From Verrucomicrobiota bacterium (GTDB lineage Bacteria; Verrucomicrobiota; Verrucomicrobiia; Palsa-1439), in the NCBI GenBank assembly GCA_003152315.1, contig PLZV01000053.1, positions 48,931-112,930 of the forward strand: 64,000 nucleotides of DNA, in the 5' to 3' direction. The translations under genes and the position numbers were made by a program. Under the pieces are notes generated by a model. The model saw nothing but the letters and a program-made list of their open reading frames with translations. It had not been told where the DNA came from and made no database searches. Below are positions 39,518-64,000 of this stretch, piece after piece; within the stretch, counting starts at the first letter, position 1; each line of letters opens with the position of its first letter.

Positions 39518-39587
39518 GGAGGGACGCGCTCTGTCGCGTCCGCCGCCGTCAACGATCCCGGACGGCCACGACGGAGCGTGGCCCTCC
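39518..39587. repeat. Pair of REP-like palindromic units in inverted orientation
   Basis: GGAGGGACGCGCTCTGTCGCGTCC (39518..39541) and GACGGCCACGACGGAGCGTGGCCCTCC (39561..39587). The outer GGAGGG/CCCTCC allow one long hairpin. The second unit matches 10576..10602. Confidence 0.7.
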
Positions 39588-39655
39588 AAATCAAGACGCT
39601 GCCGAAACATCCGCGACGTTGCGGTGTTTCACTGAGTGCAGTAGCATTACGCGTG

Positions 39656-40240
39656 ATGACTCCCAGCGATTCCGACGTGGCGCTCATGTTGCGCGTACGC
39701 GACGGGGACGCGGATGCGTTTCGGGAATTGGTCGAGCGGCACCAGCGGGCCGTGATCAATACGATCCATCGCGCCATCGGCGACGCCTGGGAGGCGGAAG
39801 ATTTGGCGCAGCGCGTGTTTCTGCAGGTGTACCGCTCGGCAAAACGCTACCAGCCGACCGCGAAATTCACCACCTGGCTTTTCACCATCACCCGCAACAC
39901 GATTCTCAACGAGCACCGCCGCCGCAGTCGGCATGCCGCCGAATCGCTCGAGGCGCTGCAAGATCCGGCCGATCCGGAGAGCACTGGCTGGCAGGCGCCG
40001 GACACAACCTCGCCCGACCCTGCGCAGGAAGTCATCGAAAGCGAGTTGAAGAAGAAGATCATGGAAGCCGTCCAGGAACTGCCCGAGGCTCAGCGCACGG
40101 CGGTGATCCTGTGCCGGTACGAGGGCTTGTCTTATGAGGAGATTGCGCAGGTGCTGCGTTGCTCGGTTTCCGCTACGAAATCACTGCTGCACCGGGCGCG
40201 CCTGACGCTAAAAGAAAAGCTTCGCGGCTATTACCAGTGA
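39656..40240 (+). CDS. ECF-type RNA polymerase sigma factor
   Basis: The ATG at 39656 gives LMLRVRDGDADAFRELVERHQRAV, then region 2 (DLAQRVFLQVY...FTTWLFTITRN) and region 4 (LPEAQRTAVILCRYEGLSYEEIAQVL). Confidence 0.9.
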   Translation: MTPSDSDVALMLRVRDGDADAFRELVERHQRAVINTIHRAIGDAWEAEDLAQRVFLQVYRSAKRYQPTAKFTTWLFTITRNTILNEHRRRSRHAAESLEALQDPADPESTGWQAPDTTSPDPAQEVIESELKKKIMEAVQELPEAQRTAVILCRYEGLSYEEIAQVLRCSVSATKSLLHRARLTLKEKLRGYYQ

Positions 40241-53768: not shown

Positions 53769-55238
53769 TTAGCCGCGGCGCACGGGTTTGGTCAGGGCGA
53801 GGACCAATCCAGCCCAGAGCAACAGAGCCAACGTCAGCACAGGAGTGACCCATGCCGGCAGCAGGGAGTGTATTTCGGCAAGACTGCAACTGTGTGCGGC
53901 CGCCAGCCACACGTCCAGGCGCAGGTTCAAAATCCCAAAAACCGCTGCCCAGCACAAAGCGAAATGTCCGATGCCGGCGCGGATAGCGGCCACTCCAGTC
54001 TTCCCCCGGACATGGAAGAAATGCCAAAGGCCCAGCACCAGCATGGTTCCGCCGACGATTACGGCTGAAATCCGGTCATTTTCTTGCCAGGCCACATAAA
54101 CCAGCCAGGAAAAAATGGCCAGATAAACGCCCGTCAACATACCAGCACGTGTGCCCGTCTTCATGGGCGTCATAGCAGGTCGGGGGGTTCCGATGGTTTG
54201 CTCAGTCTGTTGATAAAAGGCCAGTCTGTGCCGAAACCACGCGACGGTGAACGTGGCTGCGACGGCGGCATAAAACCACCAGAAGCCTGCCATCGCGGCA
54301 AAAAACGTCCGGTCACTCCACTCAAAGTGTTGGCTTAGGGACTTCATGGCAAACTTCGCAGGCATGCACCACACCAGCACGAAAACCCAAAAAACGGTGA
54401 ACCAAATCTTTTGAAGCCGGCGTTCGCGCGCGTCTGTGGTGGCGCGTATGACCAACCATTGTGACGCGATGCCGCCAAAAATCCCGATAAAGGGGGCCAA
54501 CGTCGCCAGCCACGCGGCCAGAAACCCGGATTTGGCCGCCGCCGTGCCTTTCGCTCCCAGGCCCGCACCGGCGGTTGCCGCCGAACCGGCTGCCAGCGGC
54601 AGCGCCGCCAGCACGGCCCCCGAAAACGCCTGACCCGGTGCCGTCCGGCTCAATGTTCCTTCCACGAATGCGATGACTTCTTCGTGCAATAGCTTTCGCC
54701 CGCGAGAGAGCCTTTGCTTCACGGCATCCTCGCTCAATTCCAACTCGGCCGCCACGCGCTCGACCGACTGTTGTTCGCGGTAGAACAAAATCAGCGGCTC
54801 ACGGTACGCATCGGGTACCCGTTCCAGAGCGCGCCAGAGAATCGCCTCTTCCTCACGGCTGACAGCTTGTGCCGCCGGCGACGGATCGGGTGATGGCGGT
54901 TCATGAAGCGTCTCCAGTGGCTCCGCGGCGTGAATGGGCTCGTGTACCTGTCGGCGAAGTTGTTTGCCGACCAGGAAGCGGGTGATTCCGCACAACCAGG
55001 CCCGCAGATGCGCGGGCTCGCGCAGCTCGGAAAGCTGCTTCCACGCAGCGAGAAAAGTTTCCTGGGCCAGGTCTTCGCTCAGGGTCAGGCTGCCCGTCGC
55101 ATTATAGGTGATCGAACAGACCAATGACTGATACCGCTCGACGATCTTCCGAAAGGCGTCCCGGTCGCCCGTCAGGCTCCATTCCACCAGTTGTTCATCG
55201 CTGTTCGCTATCGCCGGCATTGTCTGGGTCGTCATCAT
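53769..55238 (-). CDS. ECF sigma factor fused to a polytopic C-terminal domain of about 7-8 TM helices
   Basis: The ATG at 55238 gives MMTTQTMPAIANSDEQLVEWSLTGDRDAFRKIVERY. Region 2 (DLAQETFLAAWK...RAWLCGITR) and region 4 (VPDAYREPLILFYREQQSVERVAAELELSEDAVKQRLSRGR) follow, then about 280 aa of hydrophobic helices. Confidence 0.8.
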   Translation of the reverse strand: MMTTQTMPAIANSDEQLVEWSLTGDRDAFRKIVERYQSLVCSITYNATGSLTLSEDLAQETFLAAWKQLSELREPAHLRAWLCGITRFLVGKQLRRQVHEPIHAAEPLETLHEPPSPDPSPAAQAVSREEEAILWRALERVPDAYREPLILFYREQQSVERVAAELELSEDAVKQRLSRGRKLLHEEVIAFVEGTLSRTAPGQAFSGAVLAALPLAAGSAATAGAGLGAKGTAAAKSGFLAAWLATLAPFIGIFGGIASQWLVIRATTDARERRLQKIWFTVFWVFVLVWCMPAKFAMKSLSQHFEWSDRTFFAAMAGFWWFYAAVAATFTVAWFRHRLAFYQQTEQTIGTPRPAMTPMKTGTRAGMLTGVYLAIFSWLVYVAWQENDRISAVIVGGTMLVLGLWHFFHVRGKTGVAAIRAGIGHFALCWAAVFGILNLRLDVWLAAAHSCSLAEIHSLLPAWVTPVLTLALLLWAGLVLALTKPVRRG

Positions 55239-55314: not shown

Positions 55315-56922
55315 TTACTGAGACGCGTACTGCCAGACCCAGTCGCCTTCGTTGTCGTCAAATAGCTTGTTTCCCGGAACGCCGCCATCGTCCTTCTCAT
55401 TCCAGCCGACGGAGTAGAGCACAAACTGGCCATCGGCGGTGCGCCGGTATTTGTAGGGCTCGCCGGTGATCACGTCGTGTGGCAATTGGGAGATGAATCG
55501 CGGCGAGAGCGCGTCCAACGTCTCGGGAAACTGTCCGTTGGCCAGCCGGTACCGTTCCAGCGCGCAGGCGACCGCGGCCTGGTTGGCAATCGTTTGTGCC
55601 TCCGCTGCTTTGGTAATAAAATTCTCAAGGCCGGGCAAGAGCATCGCCGCCATGATGCGGTGATGGATGATCTTGGCGAGACCGTTATCAAGCTTCAGGT
55701 CAACCTCCTGTCTGCCCGCGACGAGTTGCCCTGGCGAAATCCGTTTCTTCGACGTATCGAACCCCGACCCCAACAGCGTGTCGAAGAGCCGGCAATAATT
55801 ATACTCCTCCAGGTAATACCAGCCGCGCGGAATGAACAACCCGATATCATTCGCAACGCTGCGGTCACGTGGTCCGGGTGGTGATGATGCATCGCTGCCC
55901 AGATCATTCAGGTAGCCCGGACCCCTCTTTCGGACAAGCTCGATTGCCGTCACCCCACACGCCCGCTCCGACTCGAGGGACCGTCTCGCTTCCGACACAA
56001 AATCGCTCTGCTGCAAACGCGCCTCGAGTTCCTGGAGTTGCGCATCCGACCACGCGTGTTCCGCCAATCCTTCCCACACCGGTTGCGTGGCGGCCTGCCA
56101 GCAGGCGATCCGCACGAGATAGGAGATGATAAACGGCTCTTCCTTCGGCGAATCCGCCATGAACAGCGTCAGCTTCACGTCCCCCAATGCCTCCGCACTC
56201 CGACCCGCCGCCAGTTCGGCACAGGCTTTGAGCCCCAGCCGCCGACAGACGCTTCTCACATTGCTCAGATGCGGCAGCAGGATCGCGAATGGATTGTCCA
56301 AATCGTACCCGACGGGGTATCGCGACAAGGGCCGTTCGCTGGCGGCGCGAAGCTGGGCGAAAACCGCTTCATTGGTCCTCAGACCGTCGAGGACCGCCGG
56401 CGCCGCCTTGGCGCGAGATGCAAGGTCACGTTTGTCCGACTCAAAAGTCACTTTCTTATCACGGGAATGGGGCGCAGCGAGCGCCATCTCCCAGGCGACG
56501 AGGTCGGTAAAGTGGCGATTCCCCGCGTCCTTTTTGTCTCGGGAACTGGAAATCATGGAACCGACTCGCCCATAACTGTCGCCATTCCAGTATTCGACTG
56601 CAGCAAAGGTACGGTTGCTGCGGACGAACCATGACTTGATGAACGGCGTCGCGGCGAAGTTCTGTTCGTCGGGAATTGGTTTCGGGATGAGGGCCGCGAG
56701 ATCAAACTGCTTGCCCTGCGCTTCCGCTTCTCGCCGGTAGTTCTCCCACGCCTGCTTGCCGCGGACATTTTCCTCGGCGCAAAACAGCGCCCAGAGCGTG
56801 ACCAGGCCCGCCACGCCGATCAGCGCGCGGCGCACCGTCCGCCAGCTAAAAAGCCATTTCAGAAAACGCCTCGTCGTGGATCGCTGCCACATCGTGGGCT
56901 CGGTCGAGGGGGGAGTTGTCAT
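55315..56922 (-). CDS. Membrane-anchored periplasmic protein with a pseudopilin-like C-terminal tail (hypothetical)
   Basis: 535 aa with an N-terminal TM segment (ALIGVAGLVTLWALF). The C-terminus GEPYKYRRTADGQFVLYSVGWNEKDDGG resembles the GspG-type pseudopilin C-terminal motif. Confidence 0.5.
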   Translation of the reverse strand: MTTPPSTEPTMWQRSTTRRFLKWLFSWRTVRRALIGVAGLVTLWALFCAEENVRGKQAWENYRREAEAQGKQFDLAALIPKPIPDEQNFAATPFIKSWFVRSNRTFAAVEYWNGDSYGRVGSMISSSRDKKDAGNRHFTDLVAWEMALAAPHSRDKKVTFESDKRDLASRAKAAPAVLDGLRTNEAVFAQLRAASERPLSRYPVGYDLDNPFAILLPHLSNVRSVCRRLGLKACAELAAGRSAEALGDVKLTLFMADSPKEEPFIISYLVRIACWQAATQPVWEGLAEHAWSDAQLQELEARLQQSDFVSEARRSLESERACGVTAIELVRKRGPGYLNDLGSDASSPPGPRDRSVANDIGLFIPRGWYYLEEYNYCRLFDTLLGSGFDTSKKRISPGQLVAGRQEVDLKLDNGLAKIIHHRIMAAMLLPGLENFITKAAEAQTIANQAAVACALERYRLANGQFPETLDALSPRFISQLPHDVITGEPYKYRRTADGQFVLYSVGWNEKDDGGVPGNKLFDDNEGDWVWQYASQ

Positions 56923-56935
56923 TTTAGCCTTTCAT

Positions 56936-57364
56936 TCATGCGACCGTGGTTTGCGCGGCGCGTTCACTACGCGGCCCCGGCGCCGTGCGTTTTTGCGGGT
57001 AAACGGGTTCGGAGAGCGGACCGATCAACTGCGCCAGCATCCGCCGCTGTTCGATGAGCGCGCGAAGCTCTTCGCCGGAAGGCGGCTTCGCCTGGCTGAC
57101 GGCTTTTGTCGCCGGTTCGGCCGAAGCCAGGTTCAACACGGCAATCAAAACCCACGCGCAAGCCAGCCCCGCCCAGACCCGCCGGCTTGGCAGGACCAGT
57201 TCGCGCCACAAGGCCCAGCCGGCGGCGAGAAACAGATTGTATTTTGAATCTCGGCGGTCACAGACCGCCGCTACAGCTGGGGCGAGCGATTTATTCCACA
57301 TCCGATCCAGTTTCGGTTCAACCGTCTGGTGTCGTTTCAACAAAATTTCGCGCGGTGTCTTCAT
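56936..57364 (-). CDS. Putative single-pass anti-sigma factor
   Basis: 142 aa with a central TM segment (VWAGLACAWVLIAVLNL). It overlaps the upstream ECF sigma stop by 4 nt. Confidence 0.5.
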   Translation of the reverse strand: MKTPREILLKRHQTVEPKLDRMWNKSLAPAVAAVCDRRDSKYNLFLAAGWALWRELVLPSRRVWAGLACAWVLIAVLNLASAEPATKAVSQAKPPSGEELRALIEQRRMLAQLIGPLSEPVYPQKRTAPGPRSERAAQTTVA

Positions 57365-57921
57365 GTACGATCTTCCTCCAACTCCAACAACTTTCTCAGC
57401 GCCAGCTTGGCGTAATGCAGCCGGGATTTTACCGTGCCCACCTGCGTGCCGGTAATAACGGCGATTTCTTCCAGGGAAAACTCCTCGATGTAATGCAACA
57501 AGAGCGCCGACCGCTGCGCCAACGGGAGTTTTTCCACCAGTTTCATGAACTCCGCCTCCCGTTCCTCGCGGAGCAACATATCCAGCGGACCCGGGCTGTC
57601 GGCCTCCAGTTCGGGCAACAATTCCTCACGCAACTCGGCTTCGCGGCCCTGCCGCCGCCATTGCTGGACGCATTTCTGGTGGGCGATGCGGAACAGCCAG
57701 CCGCCGAACTTCTCGTCATCGCGGAGCGAACCGATGTGCCGGAAAGCGTTGATGAAAGTCTCCTGCACAAGGTCGAGGCTCGCCTGTTCGTCGCGTAGCA
57801 GTTCGAATCCATAAACGTACAATGGCAGTCGGTAGCGCCGGAAGAGTGTCTTCCAGGCTTCGGCGTTGCCAGCCCGCGCGTCGGCCACGGGCAGTTGTTC
57901 GCGTTCAGCCACTACCTGCAT
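57361..57921 (-). CDS. ECF-type RNA polymerase sigma factor
   Basis: 186 aa with ARAGNAEAWKTLFRRY, region 2 (DLVQETFINAFRH...FGGWLFRIAHQ) and region 4 (LPLAQRSALLLHYIEEFSLEEIAVITG). Confidence 0.9.
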   Translation of the reverse strand: MQVVAEREQLPVADARAGNAEAWKTLFRRYRLPLYVYGFELLRDEQASLDLVQETFINAFRHIGSLRDDEKFGGWLFRIAHQKCVQQWRRQGREAELREELLPELEADSPGPLDMLLREEREAEFMKLVEKLPLAQRSALLLHYIEEFSLEEIAVITGTQVGTVKSRLHYAKLALRKLLELEEDRT

Positions 57922-57970
57922 TTACACCCAGTAGAATGCCCGGAGCGAGAAAAGGTTCATCGGCATTATA
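57872..57970. repeat. Direct repeat copy 1. It spans the ECF-type promoter plus the first ~12 codons of the sigma gene.
   Basis: The core ACTACCTGCATTTACACCCAGTAGAATGCCCGGAGCGAGAAAAGGTTCA is shared with 59449..59512 and 62649..62713. The left arm CCACGGGCAGTTGTTCGCGTTCA is shared with copy 3. On the minus strand it reads GAACCTT-N16-TCTAC (57958..57931), then ATG 9 nt further on. Confidence 0.85.
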
Positions 57971-58078
57971 AAAGATGATCCACTGTCTCGAACTAGCTTG
58001 CGGAAGTGCTTCCAAATACAGCTGTTCCGCATTGTGCGACGCTCTGAATCTCCAAGAAGAACATATAGAAGATAGCGC

Positions 58079-58114
58079 TTGACAGGCACTTATCATATTG
58101 ATATCATAATGATA
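58079..58114 (+). promoter_or_regulatory. Sigma70-type promoter with overlapping palindromic operator for the SPFH-Arc pair
   Basis: TTGACA (58079..58084), a 17-nt spacer, then TATCAT (58102..58107). An imperfect 24-bp palindrome TATCATATTGATATCATAATGATA (58091..58114) overlaps it. The track's TTG start at 58079 is in fact the -35 hexamer. Confidence 0.6.
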
Positions 58115-58147
58115 CTGTCACCCCGCAAAGAAAGAACGTTGTTCGAC

Positions 58148-59107
58148 ATGAATACGAATCAATTCACGGCCACACAGGAGCGAATCATCCAGGCAAAAAA
58201 CGGCTGGGTCATGCTGCTGTCGCTTTTCGGACTGCTGATCGGCGACATCGCTTTGCTGATCTATTCCGTCAACGAGCACTCCGTTGTTTTCCTCATTCTG
58301 TCAGTGCTGCTGATCCCCGTGACCATCATCCTGCTGACGGGATTCTTCACCTTGCAGCCGAACGAGGGCCGGGTCCTCATCCTGTTCGGCGCCTATCGGG
58401 GAACCGTTCGCGAAAGCGGGTTTCACTGGGGCAACCCGTTTTACTCCAATGGCAAGGCATTGGAACCCGGGGAAGCGCAAAGGAAAACGAGCGGGACGCC
58501 TCGGGCGTCGGCGGCACGCCACAAGATTTCGTTGCGCGCCCGCACGCTCAACGGCGACAAGTTGAAGGTCAATGACAAACGCGGCAACCCCATCGAGATT
58601 GCGGCGGTCGTCGTGTGGCGAGTCTCTGACACGGCGCAAGCGAGCTTCGATGTCGATGACTACCAGAAATACGTGGAAACGCAGAGCGAGACGGCGCTCC
58701 GTCATCTGGCGAGCGTGTACGCCTACGATCACGGCGAGGAAAACGAGACCACGCTCCGCAGCGGCGTGGATGAAGTTTCGCAGGCGCTGCGCAAGGAATT
58801 GCAGGAACGGCTGGCCAAGGCGGGGGTCGCCGTGGACGAAGCGCGATTGACGCACCTGGCGTACGCGCCGGAAATCGCCCAGGCGATGTTGCGTCGGCAG
58901 CAAGCGGAAGCGGTCATCGCCGCCCGCCAGAAGATCGTTCATGGGGCGGTCACCATGGTGGAAATGGCGCTGAAAGACCTGGCGGAAAAGCAGGTCGTGC
59001 ACCTCGACGACGAGCGGAAGGCCGCCATGGTCAGCAACCTGATGGTGGTGCTCTGTGGCGAGTCCGAAGTGCATCCCGTAATCAACACCGGGACCCTCTA
59101 CAACTGA
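58148..59107 (+). CDS. SPFH/Band-7 domain membrane protein
   Basis: The ATG at 58148 gives [10 protein letters not shown], then two TM helices, then an SPFH core ([20 protein letters not shown]...VVVWRV...) and a coiled tail ([24 protein letters not shown]). Confidence 0.8.
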
Positions 59108-59308
59108 TTGGCGGAAATGGCGGACCGCAAGTCATTTCTGTTGCGCATCGATCCTGCGCTCTGGGCGGATTTGGAAGCCTGGGCGCAGGACGAATTGCGC
59201 AGCGTCAACGGCCAGATCGAGTACCTCCTGCGTCAGGCAGTTCATCGGCGCAAAGGCGGGCAACCCGCGCCCAACCCGCCTGCGCAAGACCAGCCATCAA
59301 CTCAATAG
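59108..59308 (+). CDS. Arc/MetJ-type ribbon-helix-helix DNA-binding protein
   Basis: [38 protein letters not shown] is a typical RHH. It starts immediately after the SPFH stop, at TTG 59108 or ATG 59117. Confidence 0.7.
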
Positions 59309-59448
59309 ATGCAGGAGAGGTTCTGGGCTGGTGGAAATGGGATGCGGGCTGAATGTGCAATTGTACGGATCCGACCCCTCCTTTACTTCGGTCACTTCAC
59401 CAAGCAAGAATTCACTGTCTCGCTTTGATAGCGCGGAGGGCTTCTGTG

Positions 59449-59512
59449 ACTACCTGCATTTACACCCAGTAGAATGCCCGGAGCGAGAAAAGGTTCAATC
59501 GGGATTGTGGAA
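59449..59512. repeat. Direct repeat copy 2
   Basis: It is identical to the copy 1 core across ACTACCTGCATTTACACCCAGTAGAATGCCCGGAGCGAGAAAAGGTTCA. The right arm ATCGGGATTGTGGAAG is shared with copy 3. Confidence 0.85.
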
Positions 59513-59619
59513 GGCAGGCACGGTAGAGCGTTAGACCATACGTTTCGTGCAGGGGCGGGAATGTAGCGAGTGCCGCAGTGAAGATAAGTCCGAGCGTGAG
59601 GTAATGGGATTCAGTTGGC

Positions 59620-59649
59620 TTGACATTTCGCCAAATGGCGAATTATAGT
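59620..59649 (+). promoter_or_regulatory. Sigma70-type promoter with an ArsR-type operator palindrome for the ars operon
   Basis: TTGACA (59620..59625), an 18-nt spacer, then TATAGT (59644..59649). The perfect inverted repeat TTCGCCAAATGGCGAA (59627..59642) lies in the spacer. The arsR ATG at 59655 is only 5 nt past the -10 hexamer. Confidence 0.65.
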
Positions 59650-59654
59650 AGCAC

Positions 59655-60020
59655 ATGCGTGAGTTCATGAGAATTACGAAGGCGCTGGCGGACGCGAACC
59701 GGGTGCGCGTGCTGCTGGCGTTACAGGGCAGGGAATTGTGCGTGTGCCAGATTACCGAGCTGCTCGGTCTGGCGTCCTCCACCATCTCCAAGCATTTGTC
59801 CGTTCTGCACCAAGCCGGTCTGATTGAGTCGCGGAAGTCGGAGCGATGGGTGTATTACCGGCAGCCCGACGCGACAGCGTCCGTTGCCGTCCGCGAGGCG
59901 ATTGACTGGGTCCAGAAGTCGCTCGCCGACACACTGCAAGCCAACGCCGACGCCAAGAAACTGAAAAATATCCTCAAGGTTAATCCAACGGCGCTATGCC
60001 AACGCCAAATACGAAGATAA
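59655..60020 (+). CDS. arsR: ArsR/SmtB-family metalloregulatory repressor
   Basis: LADANRVRVLLALQGRELCVCQITELLGLASSTISKHLSVLHQAGLI includes the CVC metalloid-binding motif and a wHTH. Confidence 0.9.
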   Translation: MREFMRITKALADANRVRVLLALQGRELCVCQITELLGLASSTISKHLSVLHQAGLIESRKSERWVYYRQPDATASVAVREAIDWVQKSLADTLQANADAKKLKNILKVNPTALCQRQIRR

Positions 60021-60445
60021 AGGTTCTGTTTCTCTGCACCGGTAACTCATGCCGCAGCCAGATGGCCGAAGGCTGGGCGCGACACCTGAAAGCCGACGTG
60101 ATGGAGCCGTATTCGGCCGGCATTGAGAAACACGGACTGAATCCTCACGCCGTCAAAGTCATGGCGGAAGCGGGCGTGGACATCACCGGGCAACGATCCA
60201 AGACCGTCGCGGAGCTTGGTCCGATGGAGTTCGATTACGTCGTCACAGTCTGCGGCCATGCCAACGAGGACTGCCCCCTGTTTCCCGGCAAAGCCAAGGT
60301 GGTGCATGTAGGCTTCGACGATCCGCCAAAACTTTCGGCGGGGCTACCGGACGGCGAGCCAAAGCTAGCGATTTACCGGCCCGTGCGCGACCAGATCCGT
60401 GCTTTCATTGAAACATTACCGGGGGCGCTCCCCGAAAGGAACTGA
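59996..60445 (+). CDS. arsC: Arsenate reductase, LMW-PTPase (thioredoxin-coupled) type
   Basis: KVLFLCTGNSCRSQMAEGW contains the CX5R P-loop. Downstream Cys and DPP motifs are present. Confidence 0.85.
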   Translation: MPTPNTKIKVLFLCTGNSCRSQMAEGWARHLKADVMEPYSAGIEKHGLNPHAVKVMAEAGVDITGQRSKTVAELGPMEFDYVVTVCGHANEDCPLFPGKAKVVHVGFDDPPKLSAGLPDGEPKLAIYRPVRDQIRAFIETLPGALPERN

Positions 60446-60448
60446 CTA

Positions 60449-61309
60449 ATGGACAAGGAATCGGTGCGACAGAAGGTTCGCGAAGGTTACGGCAAGATTG
60501 CCGTGAGCGAGGGTGCGTGTTGCGGCAGCGGCGTCTCCTGCTGCGGCTCGTCACCGGCAGCGGCCGAGGAATTGGTGCGGCACATCGGGTATTCGACCGA
60601 CGACCTTGCGGTGCTACCGGCAGGCGCCAACATGGGGCTGTCTTGCGGCAATCCCACCGCCATCGCAGCACTGCAGCCGGGCGAGTTCGTGTTGGATTTG
60701 GGGGCCGGCGGCGGCTTCGATGTGTTTATCGCCGGCCGCAAGCTGGGCGCGACCGGTCGCGCCATCGGCGTGGACATGACGCCGGAAATGCTGGCCAAAG
60801 CGCGCCGCAACGCGGTCGATTACCGCGAACGGACGGGACTGGACAATATCGAGTTTCGCCTCGGCGAAATCGAACACTTGCCGGTGGCGGATGCCAGCGT
60901 CGATGTCGTGATCTCCAACTGCGTCATCAATCTTTCGCCGGACAAACCACAGGTTTGGCGCGAAATGGCCCGCGTCCTGAAACCGGGCGGTCGCGTCGCG
61001 GTGTCGGACCTGGCGTTGTTGAAACCGTTGCCGGAAGCGGTCGTCGGCATGGTCGAGGCACTGATCGGCTGCATCGCGGGCGCGGTGCTGGTGTCCGAGA
61101 CGGAACAGATGGCCCACGCGGCCGGGTTGGTGGACATCGTGTTGACGCCCAAGTCGGATTACGTGAACGGCATGACCGACTGGAATGACCCGCTCTACCG
61201 GCAAATCCTCGCGCACTTGCCGGACGGCTCCAAGGCGGTCGACTATATCACCAGCCTCGAACTTCAGGCGCGCAAACCGGCAGAGTCCGCGCACAACAAC
61301 CAGAGATGA
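60449..61309 (+). CDS. arsM: Arsenite S-adenosylmethionine methyltransferase
   Basis: It has an N-terminal Cys pair region (ACCGSGVSCCG), the SAM motif VLDLGAGGGFDV, and ISNCVINLSPDK with the conserved Cys. Confidence 0.85.
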   Translation: MDKESVRQKVREGYGKIAVSEGACCGSGVSCCGSSPAAAEELVRHIGYSTDDLAVLPAGANMGLSCGNPTAIAALQPGEFVLDLGAGGGFDVFIAGRKLGATGRAIGVDMTPEMLAKARRNAVDYRERTGLDNIEFRLGEIEHLPVADASVDVVISNCVINLSPDKPQVWREMARVLKPGGRVAVSDLALLKPLPEAVVGMVEALIGCIAGAVLVSETEQMAHAAGLVDIVLTPKSDYVNGMTDWNDPLYRQILAHLPDGSKAVDYITSLELQARKPAESAHNNQR

Positions 61310-61310
61310 T

Positions 61311-61463
61311 ATGGGTCGGGGGCTGACAATTCCGACTCTTTTGATTGCCGTTGGCTGTTCGCCGGAACAAAGGGTCACTGGCAAGATCGTCATTAAGAGG
61401 TCGAACACCTTCGGCGAGGATCATTGGACCGCATTTGATCGAGGCGTTCCGCGCGCTGCATGA
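61311..61463 (+). CDS. Possible 50-aa lipoprotein-like ORF between arsM and ACR3 (doubtful)
   Basis: MGRGLTIPTLLIAVGCSPEQ... has a lipobox-like AVGC. There is no other support. Confidence 0.2.
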   Translation: MGRGLTIPTLLIAVGCSPEQRVTGKIVIKRSNTFGEDHWTAFDRGVPRAA

Positions 61464-61505
61464 TGAAGCGGATCGACCGAGACAAGAAAATCAAACCCAT
61501 CATCT

Positions 61506-62672
61506 GTGAGTAAGATTATGAGCGAACACATTTCCCGAAAACTCTCCTTCCTCGACCGGTATCTGACGCTGTGGATTTTTCTGGCAATGGGCATCGGCGT
61601 AGGGCTGGGGTATTTCATCCCGGGCACCCAAACGATTATCAACAAGTTTCAGGTCGGCACGACCAACATTCCGATTGCCATCGGGCTGATCCTGATGATG
61701 TATCCCCCGCTGGCGAAAGTGAAATACGAGGAACTCGGCGACGTGTTCCGCAACTGGAAAATCCTCGGCCTGTCGCTGGTGCAGAACTGGGTGATCGGGC
61801 CGGTCCTGATGTTCGTCTTGGCGATTGTTTTCCTGCACAATTACCCTGAATACATGGTCGGGTTGATCATGATCGGCCTTGCCCGCTGCATCGCAATGGT
61901 GATCGTCTGGAACGAGCTAGCGAAGGGCGACACGGAGTACTGCGCCGGGCTGGTAGCGTTCAATAGCGTGTTCCAGGTATTGTTCTTCAGCGTATATGCG
62001 TGGTTCTTCATCACGGTGCTGCCGCCACTGTTCGGGTTGAGTGGCAGCGTGGTCAAAGTGACAATGGGCCAGATCGCGGAGAGCGTGTTCATCTATCTCG
62101 GGATTCCGTTCCTTGCCGGCGTCATTAGCCGGTTCGTCGGATTGAAGACGAAAGGCCGGGAGTGGTATGAGAAATCGTTCATCCCACGGATCAGCCCAAT
62201 GACTTTGATCGCGCTATTGTTCACCATCCTGGTGATGTTCAGCCTGAAAGGCGACCGGATCGTCCGCATCCCTCTCGACGTGCTCCGAATTGCCGTACCG
62301 CTGTTGATCTACTTTGTGGTGATGTTCCTCGTGAGTTTCTGGTTGGGGCGCAAAGTCGGCGCGGACTACTCCAAGACCGCGACACTTTCTTTCACCGCCG
62401 CCAGCAACAACTTCGAGTTGGCCATCGCCGTGGCGGTTGCCGTGTTCGGCATCAACTCCGGTGTGGCCTTCGCCGCCGTCATTGGCCCACTGGTCGAGGT
62501 GCCGGTGTTGATCGGCTTGGTCAACGTCGCGCTCTATTTCCAACGCCGGTACTTTGGCCAGTCGGCGGGGCCGGTGGACGGTCTGCTCACCGCAACCGCC
62601 AACGAAGCCGGCTGCGCGCCGCCCACGGGCAGTTGTTCGCGTTCAAGCACTACCAGCATTCACACCCAGTAG
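61506..62672 (+). CDS. acr3: Arsenite efflux permease, ACR3 family, with a non-native C-terminal tail
   Basis: It has [46 protein letters not shown] and [16 protein letters not shown]. The last ~35 aa (after [10 protein letters not shown]) run into direct repeat copy 3, and the stop lies inside the repeat. Confidence 0.9.
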
Positions 62673-62713
62673 AATGCCGAGAGCGAGAAAGGGTTCAATC
62701 GGGATTGTGGAAG
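62611..62713. repeat. Direct repeat copy 3. It carries a promoter plus a remnant of a sigma-gene 5' end.
   Basis: CCACGGGCAGTTGTTCGCGTTCAAGCACTACCAGCATTCACACCCAGTAGAATGCCGAGAGCGAGAAAGGGTTCAATCGGGATTGTGGAAG. The minus strand would encode [12 protein letters not shown]..., against MQVVAEREQLPV... for the intact sigma gene. Confidence 0.85.
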
Positions 62714-62829
62714 ACTGGCGAAGCGGTGAGATCGGGGCGCAAGCCATGGTTGGGCTGCCGTCGTTTGGGGTGTTTGCGCATTTGCAAAATCTGATTTCTC
62801 ACGTAGGGTGAGGGCAGAGTCAGGCCACA

Positions 62830-64000
62830 ATGGGGGGCATCGGTATGAAACTGGGCAGGCTCATTTTCGTATTTTTTCTGGCGCTGTTGACGCAAGCGCT
62901 GGGCGGGACCTATACCATCCACAGCACGCGCATCCCGGTCCCGGTGACCGCCGATGGCACGGTCGGCGGCGATACGTCCGCATCTTCGACCAACACCCTG
63001 GAGATCGATGCGAATATTTACGTGCCCGACGGCGTAGTCGCGCCCGTCGCAGTGGTGGTGGTGGTCCACGGCTTCGCGGAAACGAAAAGCACCCCGACCA
63101 TCGTGACGTTCGCTGAGGATTTTGCCGCGGCGGGCTACGTCGTGGTCACGCCCACCGTCCGCGGCTTCGGGAATTCCGACGGCTCGGTTTCGTTGGTCGG
63201 ACCCAACGAGGTCAACGACCTGAAAACCATCATCCTGGCGATGCAAACGGGCTCGATCGGGGATGCACCGGCGATAGCGATACCCGTCACCAGCGCGAGC
63301 AAGTTCGGCGTGATAGGGCCATCCTACGGCGGCGGACACACCTTCGAGATCGTGCGGACACACGTGGCCGGCTTGACCGCGGTGATCCCGATCATCGGCT
63401 GGACGGACCTTTACCAGGCGCTGGCGCCCAATGACGTTCCCAAGCTGACGTATTCGCTGGGCCTCTTCGCCAGTGGCTTTGATTTCACGAATCCAAACTA
63501 TGCGCCGGTGATGTTCGACTGGCTCCGCGACATTCTCAACGGCACGCCGGAGAAAACGCGCCAGGGTGCTCCGGAGAACAACATCGATTGGCGCTCGGTG
63601 ATCTTCAATCCAGCGGAGCTGACTGTCCCGGCCTTTGTGATTCAGGGTTGGCAGGACGATTTGTTTCCCGCCGAACAGGCCCTTCAACTCGCCCAAACCA
63701 ATCATTCCATCCCGTTCCTGAAACTTTACATCGGTGGGCTGGGGCATCCGCCCGCTTCGTCAAGTGTCACGGGCAATGAAGGAATGTATTTGCGGACCCA
63801 AGCCGTCCGTTGGTTCGACCAATGGCTCAAGGGTATCGACACCGGCATCACGAACGAGCCGCCCGTGACGCTGGCTCCTGAGAACACGACGAACTGGTCA
63901 AGCAATGCGTTGCTACAGGCCAGCAGCCTGCCACTACCGGGCATGGTTACGAACACGTACTTCCTCAACGGGGCGCTGCTCTCCACCGTCAGCCCGGCCG
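62830..64000 (+). CDS. Secreted alpha/beta hydrolase, CocE/NonD / X-Pro dipeptidyl-peptidase (S15)-like. Partial; it runs off the right edge.
   Basis: My own translation gives MGGIGMKLGRLIFVFFLALLTQALGG, then VVVVVHGFAE, VRGFGNSDG, the elbow GVIGPSYGGGH and WQDDLFP. There is no stop before 64000, so it is absent from the ORF track. Confidence 0.7.
   Translation, partial: MGGIGMKLGRLIFVFFLALLTQALGGTYTIHSTRIPVPVTADGTVGGDTSASSTNTLEIDANIYVPDGVVAPVAVVVVVHGFAETKSTPTIVTFAEDFAAAGYVVVTPTVRGFGNSDGSVSLVGPNEVNDLKTIILAMQTGSIGDAPAIAIPVTSASKFGVIGPSYGGGHTFEIVRTHVAGLTAVIPIIGWTDLYQALAPNDVPKLTYSLGLFASGFDFTNPNYAPVMFDWLRDILNGTPEKTRQGAPENNIDWRSVIFNPAELTVPAFVIQGWQDDLFPAEQALQLAQTNHSIPFLKLYIGGLGHPPASSSVTGNEGMYLRTQAVRWFDQWLKGIDTGITNEPPVTLAPENTTNWSSNALLQASSLPLPGMVTNTYFLNGALLSTVSPA

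Follow-up and report, generated by a model that had tools for sequence, protein, structure and literature searches.

Organisation of the locus

The window analysed here, a 64-kb stretch of Verrucomicrobiota DNA (64,000 nucleotides; GenBank assembly GCA_003152315.1, contig PLZV01000053.1, positions 48,931 to 112,930 of the forward strand), contains a gene for an extracytoplasmic function (ECF) sigma factor whose promoter and 5' end are present in three direct copies, all in the minus-strand orientation of the sigma gene. The copies bracket two cassettes, an SPFH and ribbon-helix-helix (RHH) operon (cassette A) and an arsenic operon (cassette B), and the third is followed by an S15-family hydrolase gene. 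Copy 1 belongs to the intact sigma gene, while copies 2 and 3 are stubs. The features of the locus are as follows.

56936-57364, minus strand: 142-aa open reading frame (ORF), putative anti-sigma gene, downstream of and overlapping the sigma gene (ORF list)
57361-57921, minus strand: intact ECF sigma gene, 186 aa (Pfam Sigma70_r2 and r4_2)
57876-57959, minus strand: copy 1, predicted live ECF-type promoter, 5' untranslated region (5'UTR) and sigma codons 1-15
58079-58107, plus strand: sigma70-like promoter of the SPFH-RHH operon, 11/12 consensus
58148-59107, plus strand: SPFH/Band 7 gene (Pfam Band_7, E = 3e-25)
59117-59308, plus strand: RHH gene, Arc/CopG-like (Pfam RHH_5, 25.1 bits, just missing the curated cut-off of 26)
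59309-59448: spacer y, between the RHH stop codon and copy 2
59449-59513, minus strand: copy 2, displaced stub with intact promoter, 5'UTR, 3.7 sigma codons and a 16-nt right arm (R arm)
59514-59617: orphan spacer between the R arm and the arsR promoter, with no homologue found
59620-59649, plus strand: arsR promoter, 11/12 consensus, with the palindromic operator TTCGCCAAATGGCGAA
59655-60020, plus strand: arsR (Pfam)
59996-60445, plus strand: arsC, LMWP type (Pfam)
60449-61309, plus strand: arsM (Pfam)
61310-61517: deletion scar, in which either side of a ~1.9-kb segment of a related island (PBP-like gene to second arsR) survives as a remnant
61518-62672, plus strand: ACR3 arsenite efflux gene (Pfam SBF), native to residue 370 (nt 62627)
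62614-62627: 14-nt junction patch between the ars block and copy 3, GCGCGCCGCCCACG
62614-62713, minus strand: copy 3, displaced stub with ~11-15 sigma codons, 5'UTR, promoter with mutated -35 and R arm
62845-64000, plus strand: S15-family hydrolase gene, running off the window (Pfam)

An earlier note, made from the bare sequence, had read the gene content as ECF sigma, SPFH, Arc-like RHH, ArsR, LMWP-type ArsC, ArsM, ACR3 and S15 hydrolase, and Pfam agrees on every one of these. The layout of direct repeat, cassette, direct repeat, cassette, direct repeat is likewise confirmed. Each cassette was said to bring its own promoter and operator, and this holds, with two sigma70-like promoters of 11/12 consensus each.

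The three repeat copies

The three direct copies of the sigma promoter and 5' end that the note described are recovered by repeat finding, MAFFT alignment and a mismatch-tolerant search, with refined coordinates. A 35-nt core probe (at most 3 mismatches) has exactly three matches in the 64 kb, against 0 expected from 100 shuffles, and the tolerant search gives no further core copy elsewhere in the window. The start-to-start distances are 1538 nt between copies 1 and 2, and 3200 nt between copies 2 and 3.

Copy 1 comprises the -35 element GAACCTT and the -10 element TCTAC, which read on the plus strand as AAGGTTC (57952-57958) and GTAGA (57931-57935). The core of copy 2 (59449-59497) is identical to it at 49/49 positions, and its R arm (59498-59513, ATCGGGATTGTGGAAG) is the ancestral upstream flank; the boundary between this arm and the orphan spacer reads GGTTCAATCGGGATTGTGGAAGGCAGGCACGG. 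The core of copy 3 (62614-62697) has 89% identity to copy 1 over 84 nt without gaps. Its R arm (62698-62713) is identical to that of copy 2 at 16/16 positions and runs on directly into the ancestral S15 flank. Copy 1 has only a weak likeness to the R arm (TCGGCATTATAAAAG), common to all haplotypes.

A promoter had been claimed for every copy. It is intact in copies 1 and 2, but in copy 3 the -35 element is changed from GAACCTT to GAACCCT. The 15-nt spacer assigned to copy 3 was an error; each of the three copies has 16 nt between its -35 and -10 elements, and it is the -35 substitution that sets copy 3 apart.

The sigma gene and its promoter

The sigma gene has orthologues of 76-91% aa identity in 12 metagenome-assembled genomes (MAGs) of Verrucomicrobiia, found by a scan of species-representative genomes and a sigma protein search. 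A metagenome scan adds 36 more orthologous loci. The 142-aa putative anti-sigma ORF adjoins the sigma gene at all orthologous loci and belongs to the conserved left anchor operon, though it has no Pfam match.

Nearly every one of the ~48 loci has the -35 block TGAACCTTTTCTCGC unchanged, L193 being the sole exception. The -10 block CATTCTACTGGGTG is nearly invariant; its first bases are changed in L004, L010 and L186, and one base just downstream of it is changed in L007/L183 and L013. One 6-nt block within the 16-nt spacer varies among the loci. Conserved boxes, a spacer of fixed length and a location immediately upstream of the sigma gene are the properties expected of an autoregulated ECF promoter, and copy 1 is predicted on these grounds to be live.

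Two further ECF sigma genes are present in the window (with the 535-aa gene, the coordinates are 53769-55238 and 55315-56922 on the minus strand and 39578-40240 on the plus strand). One of them encodes a 489-aa sigma/anti-sigma-like fusion and follows immediately downstream of the 535-aa gene that belongs to the sigma operon. The 535-aa product has just a weak C-terminal match to a type II secretion system protein G-like domain.

Orthologous loci and the variable region

Each intact sigma gene among the ~48 loci has one repeat copy, and the core was found only at sigma orthologues or their stubs. It is not a dispersed repeat present at many unrelated loci, a finding that would have refuted the earlier note. 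An empty site with the sigma gene directly divergent from the S15 hydrolase, as the earlier note had predicted, exists in three relatives: in L004, which is the closest MAG (91% sigma identity), and in the metagenome contigs L176 and L192, sigma gene, core, R arm and S15 gene are directly adjacent. The SPFH gene adjoins the sigma core in seven loci (L006, L008, L010, L184, L186, L194 and L204), and a second copy is absent from 5/5 loci in which the DNA after the RHH gene could be read. In L195 (sigma 96% identical) the core is identical to copy 1 at 72/72 positions and is followed by the R arm and then by DNA located 3.6 kb beyond copy 3 in the contig of the window. L195 is a minimal site in which all four blocks (SPFH-RHH, ars, S15, Nramp) are missing.

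Beyond the -35 element, the relatives have at least 10 different types of neighbour. Pfam analysis of the 10 nearest right-flank ORFs, from seven other neighbour types, gives TPR, PMT_2 glycosyltransferase, ECF sigma fusion, ABC-2 permease and DinG/XPD-type helicase matches, while several of these ORFs have no match. Over 38 distinct sequences, column conservation reaches 0.90-0.94 within the repeat, is 0.72-0.89 elsewhere in the sigma gene, and falls to 0.45 immediately beyond the -35 element. Third codon positions within the repeat are conserved at 0.81-0.95. By this profile no other DNA of the locus is as well conserved as the repeat (~90 bp), which marks where a hypervariable islet begins on the left; the islet extends from 57960 to ~8.2 kb further right, just past the end of the window. 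The right edge of the islet corresponds to window-equivalent 66128-66530 and is common to L172, L173, L195 and L202. This right-edge segment (~400 nt; L082 1619-1794 corresponds to window-equivalent 66128-66303) sits between the Nramp and aldolase genes. Judged by eye, its reverse strand seems to contain the end of a coding frame, which may correspond to a 71-aa ORF at L202 2747-2962.

In L190 and L207 a second, paralogous module of the 535-aa gene and anti-sigma gene, with or without a sigma gene, stands immediately beyond the sigma promoter, and in L190 this module is followed by an SPFH paralogue (60% aa identity). The divergent sigma/SPFH pairing seems to be ancient and to have been duplicated as a module. 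A weak core-like match (L189 4482-4514; 33 nt, 85%, E = 0.005) occurs at the 5' end of the PMT_2 glycosyltransferase gene adjoining the sigma gene, and may be a second sigma-dependent promoter or a chance similarity.

Stubs and their ends

Copies that lack an intact sigma gene number eight, two in the window and six in relatives (L188, L189, L192, L198, L201 and L202). Their left ends, in copy 1 coordinates, are 57913, 57911 (copy 2), ~57888 (copy 3), 57878, 57870, 57867, 57779 and 57715. The eight stubs therefore have eight different left ends, which range from sigma codon 3 to codon 69. This variation argues against a site-specific recombinase, which would give one position.

Three of the stubs outside the window are informative on their surroundings. 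L202 has an SPFH gene (97%), an RHH gene (96%), a spacer and the core, followed by a PMT_2-type flank. In L192 the S15 gene is closely followed by a second copy, and there the S15 3' flank (AAAGGCGC in the window) is joined to sigma sequence (GGGCGTCGG) via a common GGCG. L201 has an 18-codon stub beside another ECF sigma gene, and resembles a deletion of a sigma operon.

Copies 1 and 2 and L195 share derived bases (CCTGCAT and GCCCGGAGCG) that are otherwise rare; CCTGCAT is also present in L184 and L202, and GCCCGGAGCG in the L192 stub. At the positions where these three are derived, copy 3 has the consensus-type bases. This suggests that copy 3 comes from another lineage and is not an in-situ duplicate, although copy 2 is identical to copy 1 and only 72 nt are informative. 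Copy 3 also has three private substitutions in the 72 nt, one of them the A-to-G change in the -35 element, where L193 varies as well. Private substitutions are absent from copy 2 and occur in the L192 stub. The private changes in copy 3 and the L192 stub indicate that stubs are not conserved as functional sites. The substitutions fit an age gradient in which copy 3 would be older than copy 2 and decaying.

The arsenic cassette and its junction with copy 3

The ars operon contains, in operon order, the domains HTH_5, LMWPc, Methyltransf_31 and SBF, and close homologues of its last product are named ACR3 family arsenite transporters in the source records. The arsR promoter and the perfect dyad TTCGCC-AAAT-GGCGAA overlap. 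In a larger arsenic and metal island (L215; JGI Ga0373620_0000784), one part has 88-90% identity to the block; the island comprises arsR, arsC, arsM, a PBP-like gene and, further on, a second arsR and ACR3. The arsR-arsC-arsM portion has 89.8% nt identity to L215 4271-6086. This partial, source-like island was reached solely via the protein database. A search of the species-representative genomes gave no relative of the whole cassette; ACR3 is the closest there (at most 84%), and the other ars genes reach at most 68%. Similarity to L215 starts exactly at the arsR -35 element (59618). This starting point and the internal 1.9-kb deletion mark the ends of the block as arbitrary fragment ends and not element ends. 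The ends of the scar (L215 5965-8000) match the start of the PBP-like gene and the region just upstream of ACR3, and a terminator-like hairpin lies at 61313-61338. The L215 island also has a TnpV-like gene and a gene for a 1621-aa helicase-like protein.

The 3' end of the ACR3 gene is formed by copy 3. Its homologues P0002 (91%) and P0003 (89%) end in ...LLVATAN(S/N)ACPPPTM(R/E)(K/N)P(Q/K)*, the close-homologue tail being LLVATANSACPPPTMRKPQ. The protein of the window is native up to ...CAPPT and continues as GSC..., so that ~5 native codons are lost and the last 14 codons and the stop codon (TAG, 62670-62672) are read from copy 3. The earlier statement that the ACR3 frame terminates inside copy 3 is therefore right, but the non-native tail has 14 aa and not ~35, as the C-termini of the homologues show. 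A left arm of copy 3 that would reach over the whole tail of ~35 aa was considered and rejected, since the tails of the closest homologues show this part to be native ACR3.

The junction patch resembles both parents, namely the ACR3 tail ...CCGCCGCCAAC of L215 and the sigma sequence GCGCGTCGGCCACG, and the joint between ACR3 and the stub reads GCCAACGAAGCCGGCTGCGCGCCGCCCACGGGCAG. From these sequences it is a microhomology junction of 4-5 GC-rich nucleotides that truncates ACR3. The fused tail probably has little effect, because the C-terminal tails of the homologues vary in length and sequence. A collinear 36-nt similarity between 62548-62584 and 57816-57851 (72% identity, above 499/500 shuffles) pairs the last conserved part of ACR3 with sigma codons 24-35 read in antisense, and is probably due to chance or composition. 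A contig of the same strain (L216; WOOD18-1 scaffold_4631, covering approximately window 61220-64000) has ~110 extra nt in the 5' part of ACR3. Its protein (P0001) has a different N-terminus and the same fused tail, and may be a scaffolding artefact or a real variant.

The SPFH-RHH cassette

The promoter of the SPFH-RHH operon overlaps tandem ATCATAWTGAT repeats, which are likely to be the RHH operator. The relatives have a TTGACA promoter that overlaps repeats in a like arrangement, with a different repeat sequence. The RHH protein has 93-96% aa identity to those of the relatives. Only the first ~55 nt of spacer y are common to L202, the other known array of SPFH, RHH and stub. Searches for other homologues of spacer y, and for any of 59514-59617 and of the flank of copy 1, found none.

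Assembly support and searches for mobility functions

The full arrangement is present at 99.98-100% identity in three independent assemblies, which differ in project and assembler, and parts of it recur in further short contigs of the strain. Its recurrence in independent assemblies shows that it is not an assembly artefact. The contigs of the strain comprise 18 with this exact sigma protein and 14 with the exact ArsR, in overlapping sets; 10 and 7 places, respectively, were inspected, with no empty, intermediate or excised variant among them. The sole strain variant (L085/L210; WOOD18-1 scaffold_4659) has a 111-bp deletion to the right of copy 2 (59510-59620) with TTG microhomology. The deletion fuses the R arm to the arsR promoter (ATTGTG followed by ACATTTCGCC) and changes its -35 element from TTGACA to GTGACA.

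The window is ordinary chromosome (L21, RsmB, Der, TrpD, LepB, Amt). Its lack of a recombinase, already remarked from the reading frames, is confirmed by Pfam, which gives no integrase, recombinase or transposase domain in ~60 window ORFs. None is found in the 10 right-flank ORFs scanned, which are the nearest ones in seven of the other types of neighbour, nor in the precomputed annotation of the 3.9 kb beyond the window end. The islet and its right edge contain no tRNA and no Rfam family. No attC-like or cruciform hairpin is formed by the single-strand folds of any copy on either strand (z -0.29 to +0.71). Core copies are absent from viral contigs, and the region has no specific plasmid similarity, only a generic one in ACR3 and ArsM (67-72%).

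Origin of the array

The explanation favoured here, by a modest degree, is that the three repeats represent one live copy and two displaced stubs, which would have arisen by the sequential capture of neighbouring blocks through homology-anchored illegitimate recombination. The donor would be DNA of a related strain that carries the sigma 5' end and promoter next to a different block. One end would be exchanged by homologous recombination in the conserved sigma operon, and the other joined illegitimately at a few bases of microhomology, in the first codons of the resident sigma gene or in the end of the resident cassette. Each event would insert a block beside the sigma gene and push the older block outward together with a stub of its former anchor. 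The S15 hydrolase would be the ancestral neighbour, the ars block would have arrived next and SPFH-RHH last, with the stubs as by-products. The simpler states of the relatives (sigma, core, R arm and S15; sigma, core and SPFH-RHH; and the minimal L195) support such stepwise capture. The two joints for which both parents can be reconstructed, the patch between ars and copy 3 (which truncates ACR3) and the GGCG joint of L192, are short GC-rich junctions of the expected kind. The conservation profile, taken with single-copy haplotypes of S15, SPFH and PMT_2 type, fits a fixed anchor with exchangeable modules beside it. The tandem paralogues of whole operons in L190 and L207 would be a long-fragment version of the same process, and the 48 single-copy loci against a handful of arrays match a process in which replacement is common and addition rarer. 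The fallback of the earlier note, repeat-mediated recombination, comes closer to this explanation than its first proposal.

Several observations weigh against displacement as described. The required donor haplotype, with sigma, core, R arm and ars in succession, was not found in the genome and metagenome scans. The R arms of copies 2 and 3 are identical although their cores differ, and a crossover inside the R arm would account for this more directly. Six of the eight stub ends lie within the first 18 codons of the sigma gene, which calls for an extra assumption; long direct repeats may be unstable, or truncated sigma fragments may be harmful. The stubs of copy 2 and L202 start within 2 nt of each other, though ~100 nt to their left differ.

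A Campbell-type origin leads to the same product as displacement, and the two are indistinguishable from sequence alone. Fragments of related strains would be circularised by illegitimate end-joining and integrated by a single RecA-dependent crossover in the conserved segment of ~60-105 bp. All flank relations are reproduced in this way: copy 1 would consist of the chromosomal left side and an SPFH-type flank, copy 2 of spacer y, core and the resident R arm, and copy 3 of the ACR3 tail, left arm, core and R arm with the resident S15 flank. The junction of the circle would be the microhomology junction between ACR3 and copy 3, and the agreements of 16/16 in the R arms and 49/49 between copies 1 and 2 become crossover or homology regions, which for the R arms is a somewhat better account than that of the favoured model. 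Such an origin is nevertheless rated as rather unlikely, for it needs a donor block beside the sigma gene, circularisation, transfer and one crossover confined to less than 105 bp. RecA acts poorly on 50-100 bp of homology at 89% identity, and neither circular forms nor the ars donor haplotype were seen. A purely intragenomic history is less probable again. It would begin with tandem duplication of the sigma module and continue with microhomology-mediated deletion of the redundant sigma operons, leaving 5' stubs. The tandem modules of the 535-aa gene and anti-sigma gene, with or without a sigma gene, that stand beside the core in L190 and L207 (with the SPFH paralogue after one of them), the apparent sigma-operon deletion in L201 and the microhomology deletion in the strain variant L085 are all in keeping with it. 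Copy 3, however, seems to be of another sequence lineage than copies 1 and 2 and L195, the ars block is clearly foreign with its nearest relative in an arsenic island in another context, and duplication cannot supply heterogeneous blocks.

The proposal of the earlier note, tandem site-specific insertion at an attachment (att) site, is not supported, the stub ends being variable, the junctions microhomologous and the element ends not fixed. In its fuller form the promoter and 5' segment would serve as att site for two integrase-less elements accreted in tandem, in the manner of cis-mobilizable elements (CIMEs), with the recombinase encoded elsewhere. It draws on the alternation of repeats and cassettes, the existence of empty sites, the recurrence of an SPFH-RHH and stub array in another right-hand context (L202) with nearly the same start as copy 2, the S15 cassette of L192 flanked by copies, the identical R arms of copies 2 and 3, and an unusually high nucleotide conservation of the segment that includes third codon positions. 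It is improbable all the same. Eight stubs have eight left ends, ACR3 is truncated at its junction, and the ars block, which lacks element-like ends, is a piece of a bigger island with a deletion in it. A right-hand copy is missing from all five SPFH-RHH loci in which the DNA further downstream could be read, and copy 3 is decaying with its -35 included. The window and the scanned neighbours have no recombinase, and neither tRNA, Rfam hit, hairpin, viral or plasmid copies nor, among the inspected contigs of the strain, excised or intermediate forms were found. An artefact, in which the assembler would have concatenated strain haplotypes sharing a promoter, is most improbable. The source is a metagenome with several co-occurring haplotypes, and short contigs do break at the repeats. 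Three assemblies nonetheless carry the full arrangement, and the copies differ, so that the unique junctions between spacer y and copy 2 and between ACR3 and copy 3 must exist in real molecules.

A more speculative and improbable idea is that the ~90-bp sigma segment is a genuine recombination target which captures promoter-bearing operons, through a recombinase that acts in trans with loosely placed crossovers or as a break-prone site coupled to transcription. If so, the locus would be an integron-like array without an integrase, and the stubs would put captured operons under antisense control of the stress sigma factor.

The promoter of copy 2 (-10 element, plus-strand GTAGA, at 59469-59473) is identical to the live one and points antisense into RHH-SPFH, and it is plausible that ECF activation would yield a putative antisense RNA from it. 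The promoter of copy 3 (-10 element at 62669-62673) points antisense into ACR3; for this copy the idea is weaker owing to the mutated -35 element.

Comparison with known systems

Displaced modules of Rhs and contact-dependent inhibition (CDI) loci often retain a fragment of the anchor. For the displacement or 'orphan' arrays of Rhs, CDI and type VI secretion system (T6SS) loci, homology-facilitated illegitimate recombination is the proposed origin (Jackson et al. 2009; Poole et al. 2011; Kirchberger et al. 2017, PMC5361080). Modules acquired from elsewhere in other strains join the anchor and older ones move outward, by stepwise horizontal gene transfer, and in the Rhs and T6SS arrays simple replacement by double homologous recombination is commoner than additive events (PMC5361080). 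The present locus resembles these arrays in its conserved anchor at the edge of a variable region and in the lack of an integrase. In contrast, its anchor is the promoter and first codons of an ECF sigma gene and not the constant part of a toxin gene, and its cargo comprises unrelated accessory operons with their own promoters (SPFH-RHH, arsenic operon, hydrolase). No selective logic comparable to the retention of immunity genes is apparent, and the promoter on the stubs faces outward, in antisense to the displaced cargo.

Homology-facilitated illegitimate recombination is described for naturally transformable bacteria (de Vries & Wackernagel 2002; Prudhomme et al. 2002; Meier & Wackernagel 2003, all via PMC5361080; see also PMC3240628). 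The likeness lies in one homologous end, a second end of short GC-rich microhomology that truncates a gene, and donors among relatives. The difference is that here the sequence outcome alone is seen, in an uncultured organism.

CIMEs and tandem accretion at att sites belong to the literature on streptococcal integrative conjugative and mobilizable elements (e.g. PMC5704250). Like CIMEs, the blocks of this locus are integrase-less, lie in tandem between direct repeats of a chromosomal target, and have empty sites in relatives. Unlike CIMEs, they have no fixed att core or crossover point, as the stub ends vary, and neither a recombinase, an excision product nor conserved element ends were found. 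The one-sided, ordered build-up of cassettes beside a fixed point that contains a promoter is shared with integron arrays. Here, however, no IntI, attI or attC hairpin was found (fold z near 0), the cassettes are multi-gene operons with their own promoters, and the repeats are 5' ends of a neighbouring gene.

Flexible genomic islets and other hotspots of horizontal gene transfer differ in gene content between conserved flanks among close relatives, and most of them leave no duplicated anchor. The conserved flanks of the present islet are the sigma operon on the left and window-equivalent 66128-66530 on the right. Unlike in most hotspots, its additive events are individually visible as stubs.

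The locus would thus be an anchor-stub displacement array at a flexible islet, a known pattern that is new in its ECF sigma anchor and its non-toxin cargo. If this explanation holds, it is a legible record of additive horizontal gene capture in an uncultured lineage of soil and peat Verrucomicrobia, with a dated scar for each acquisition whose order and sources can be read from the sequence. The displacement-array pattern would be extended from polymorphic toxin loci to an ordinary regulatory gene with metabolic and resistance cargo, which suggests that such capture operates generally where a short and highly conserved sequence adjoins a variable region. Where a stub is intact, as in copy 2, the captured operon may also come to be transcribed in antisense in dependence on the sigma factor. 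Duplicated stubs of a promoter can be mistaken for att sites, and metagenome assemblies can break at them, which calls for caution with similar arrangements, and the present locus is useful as a clean natural example of them.

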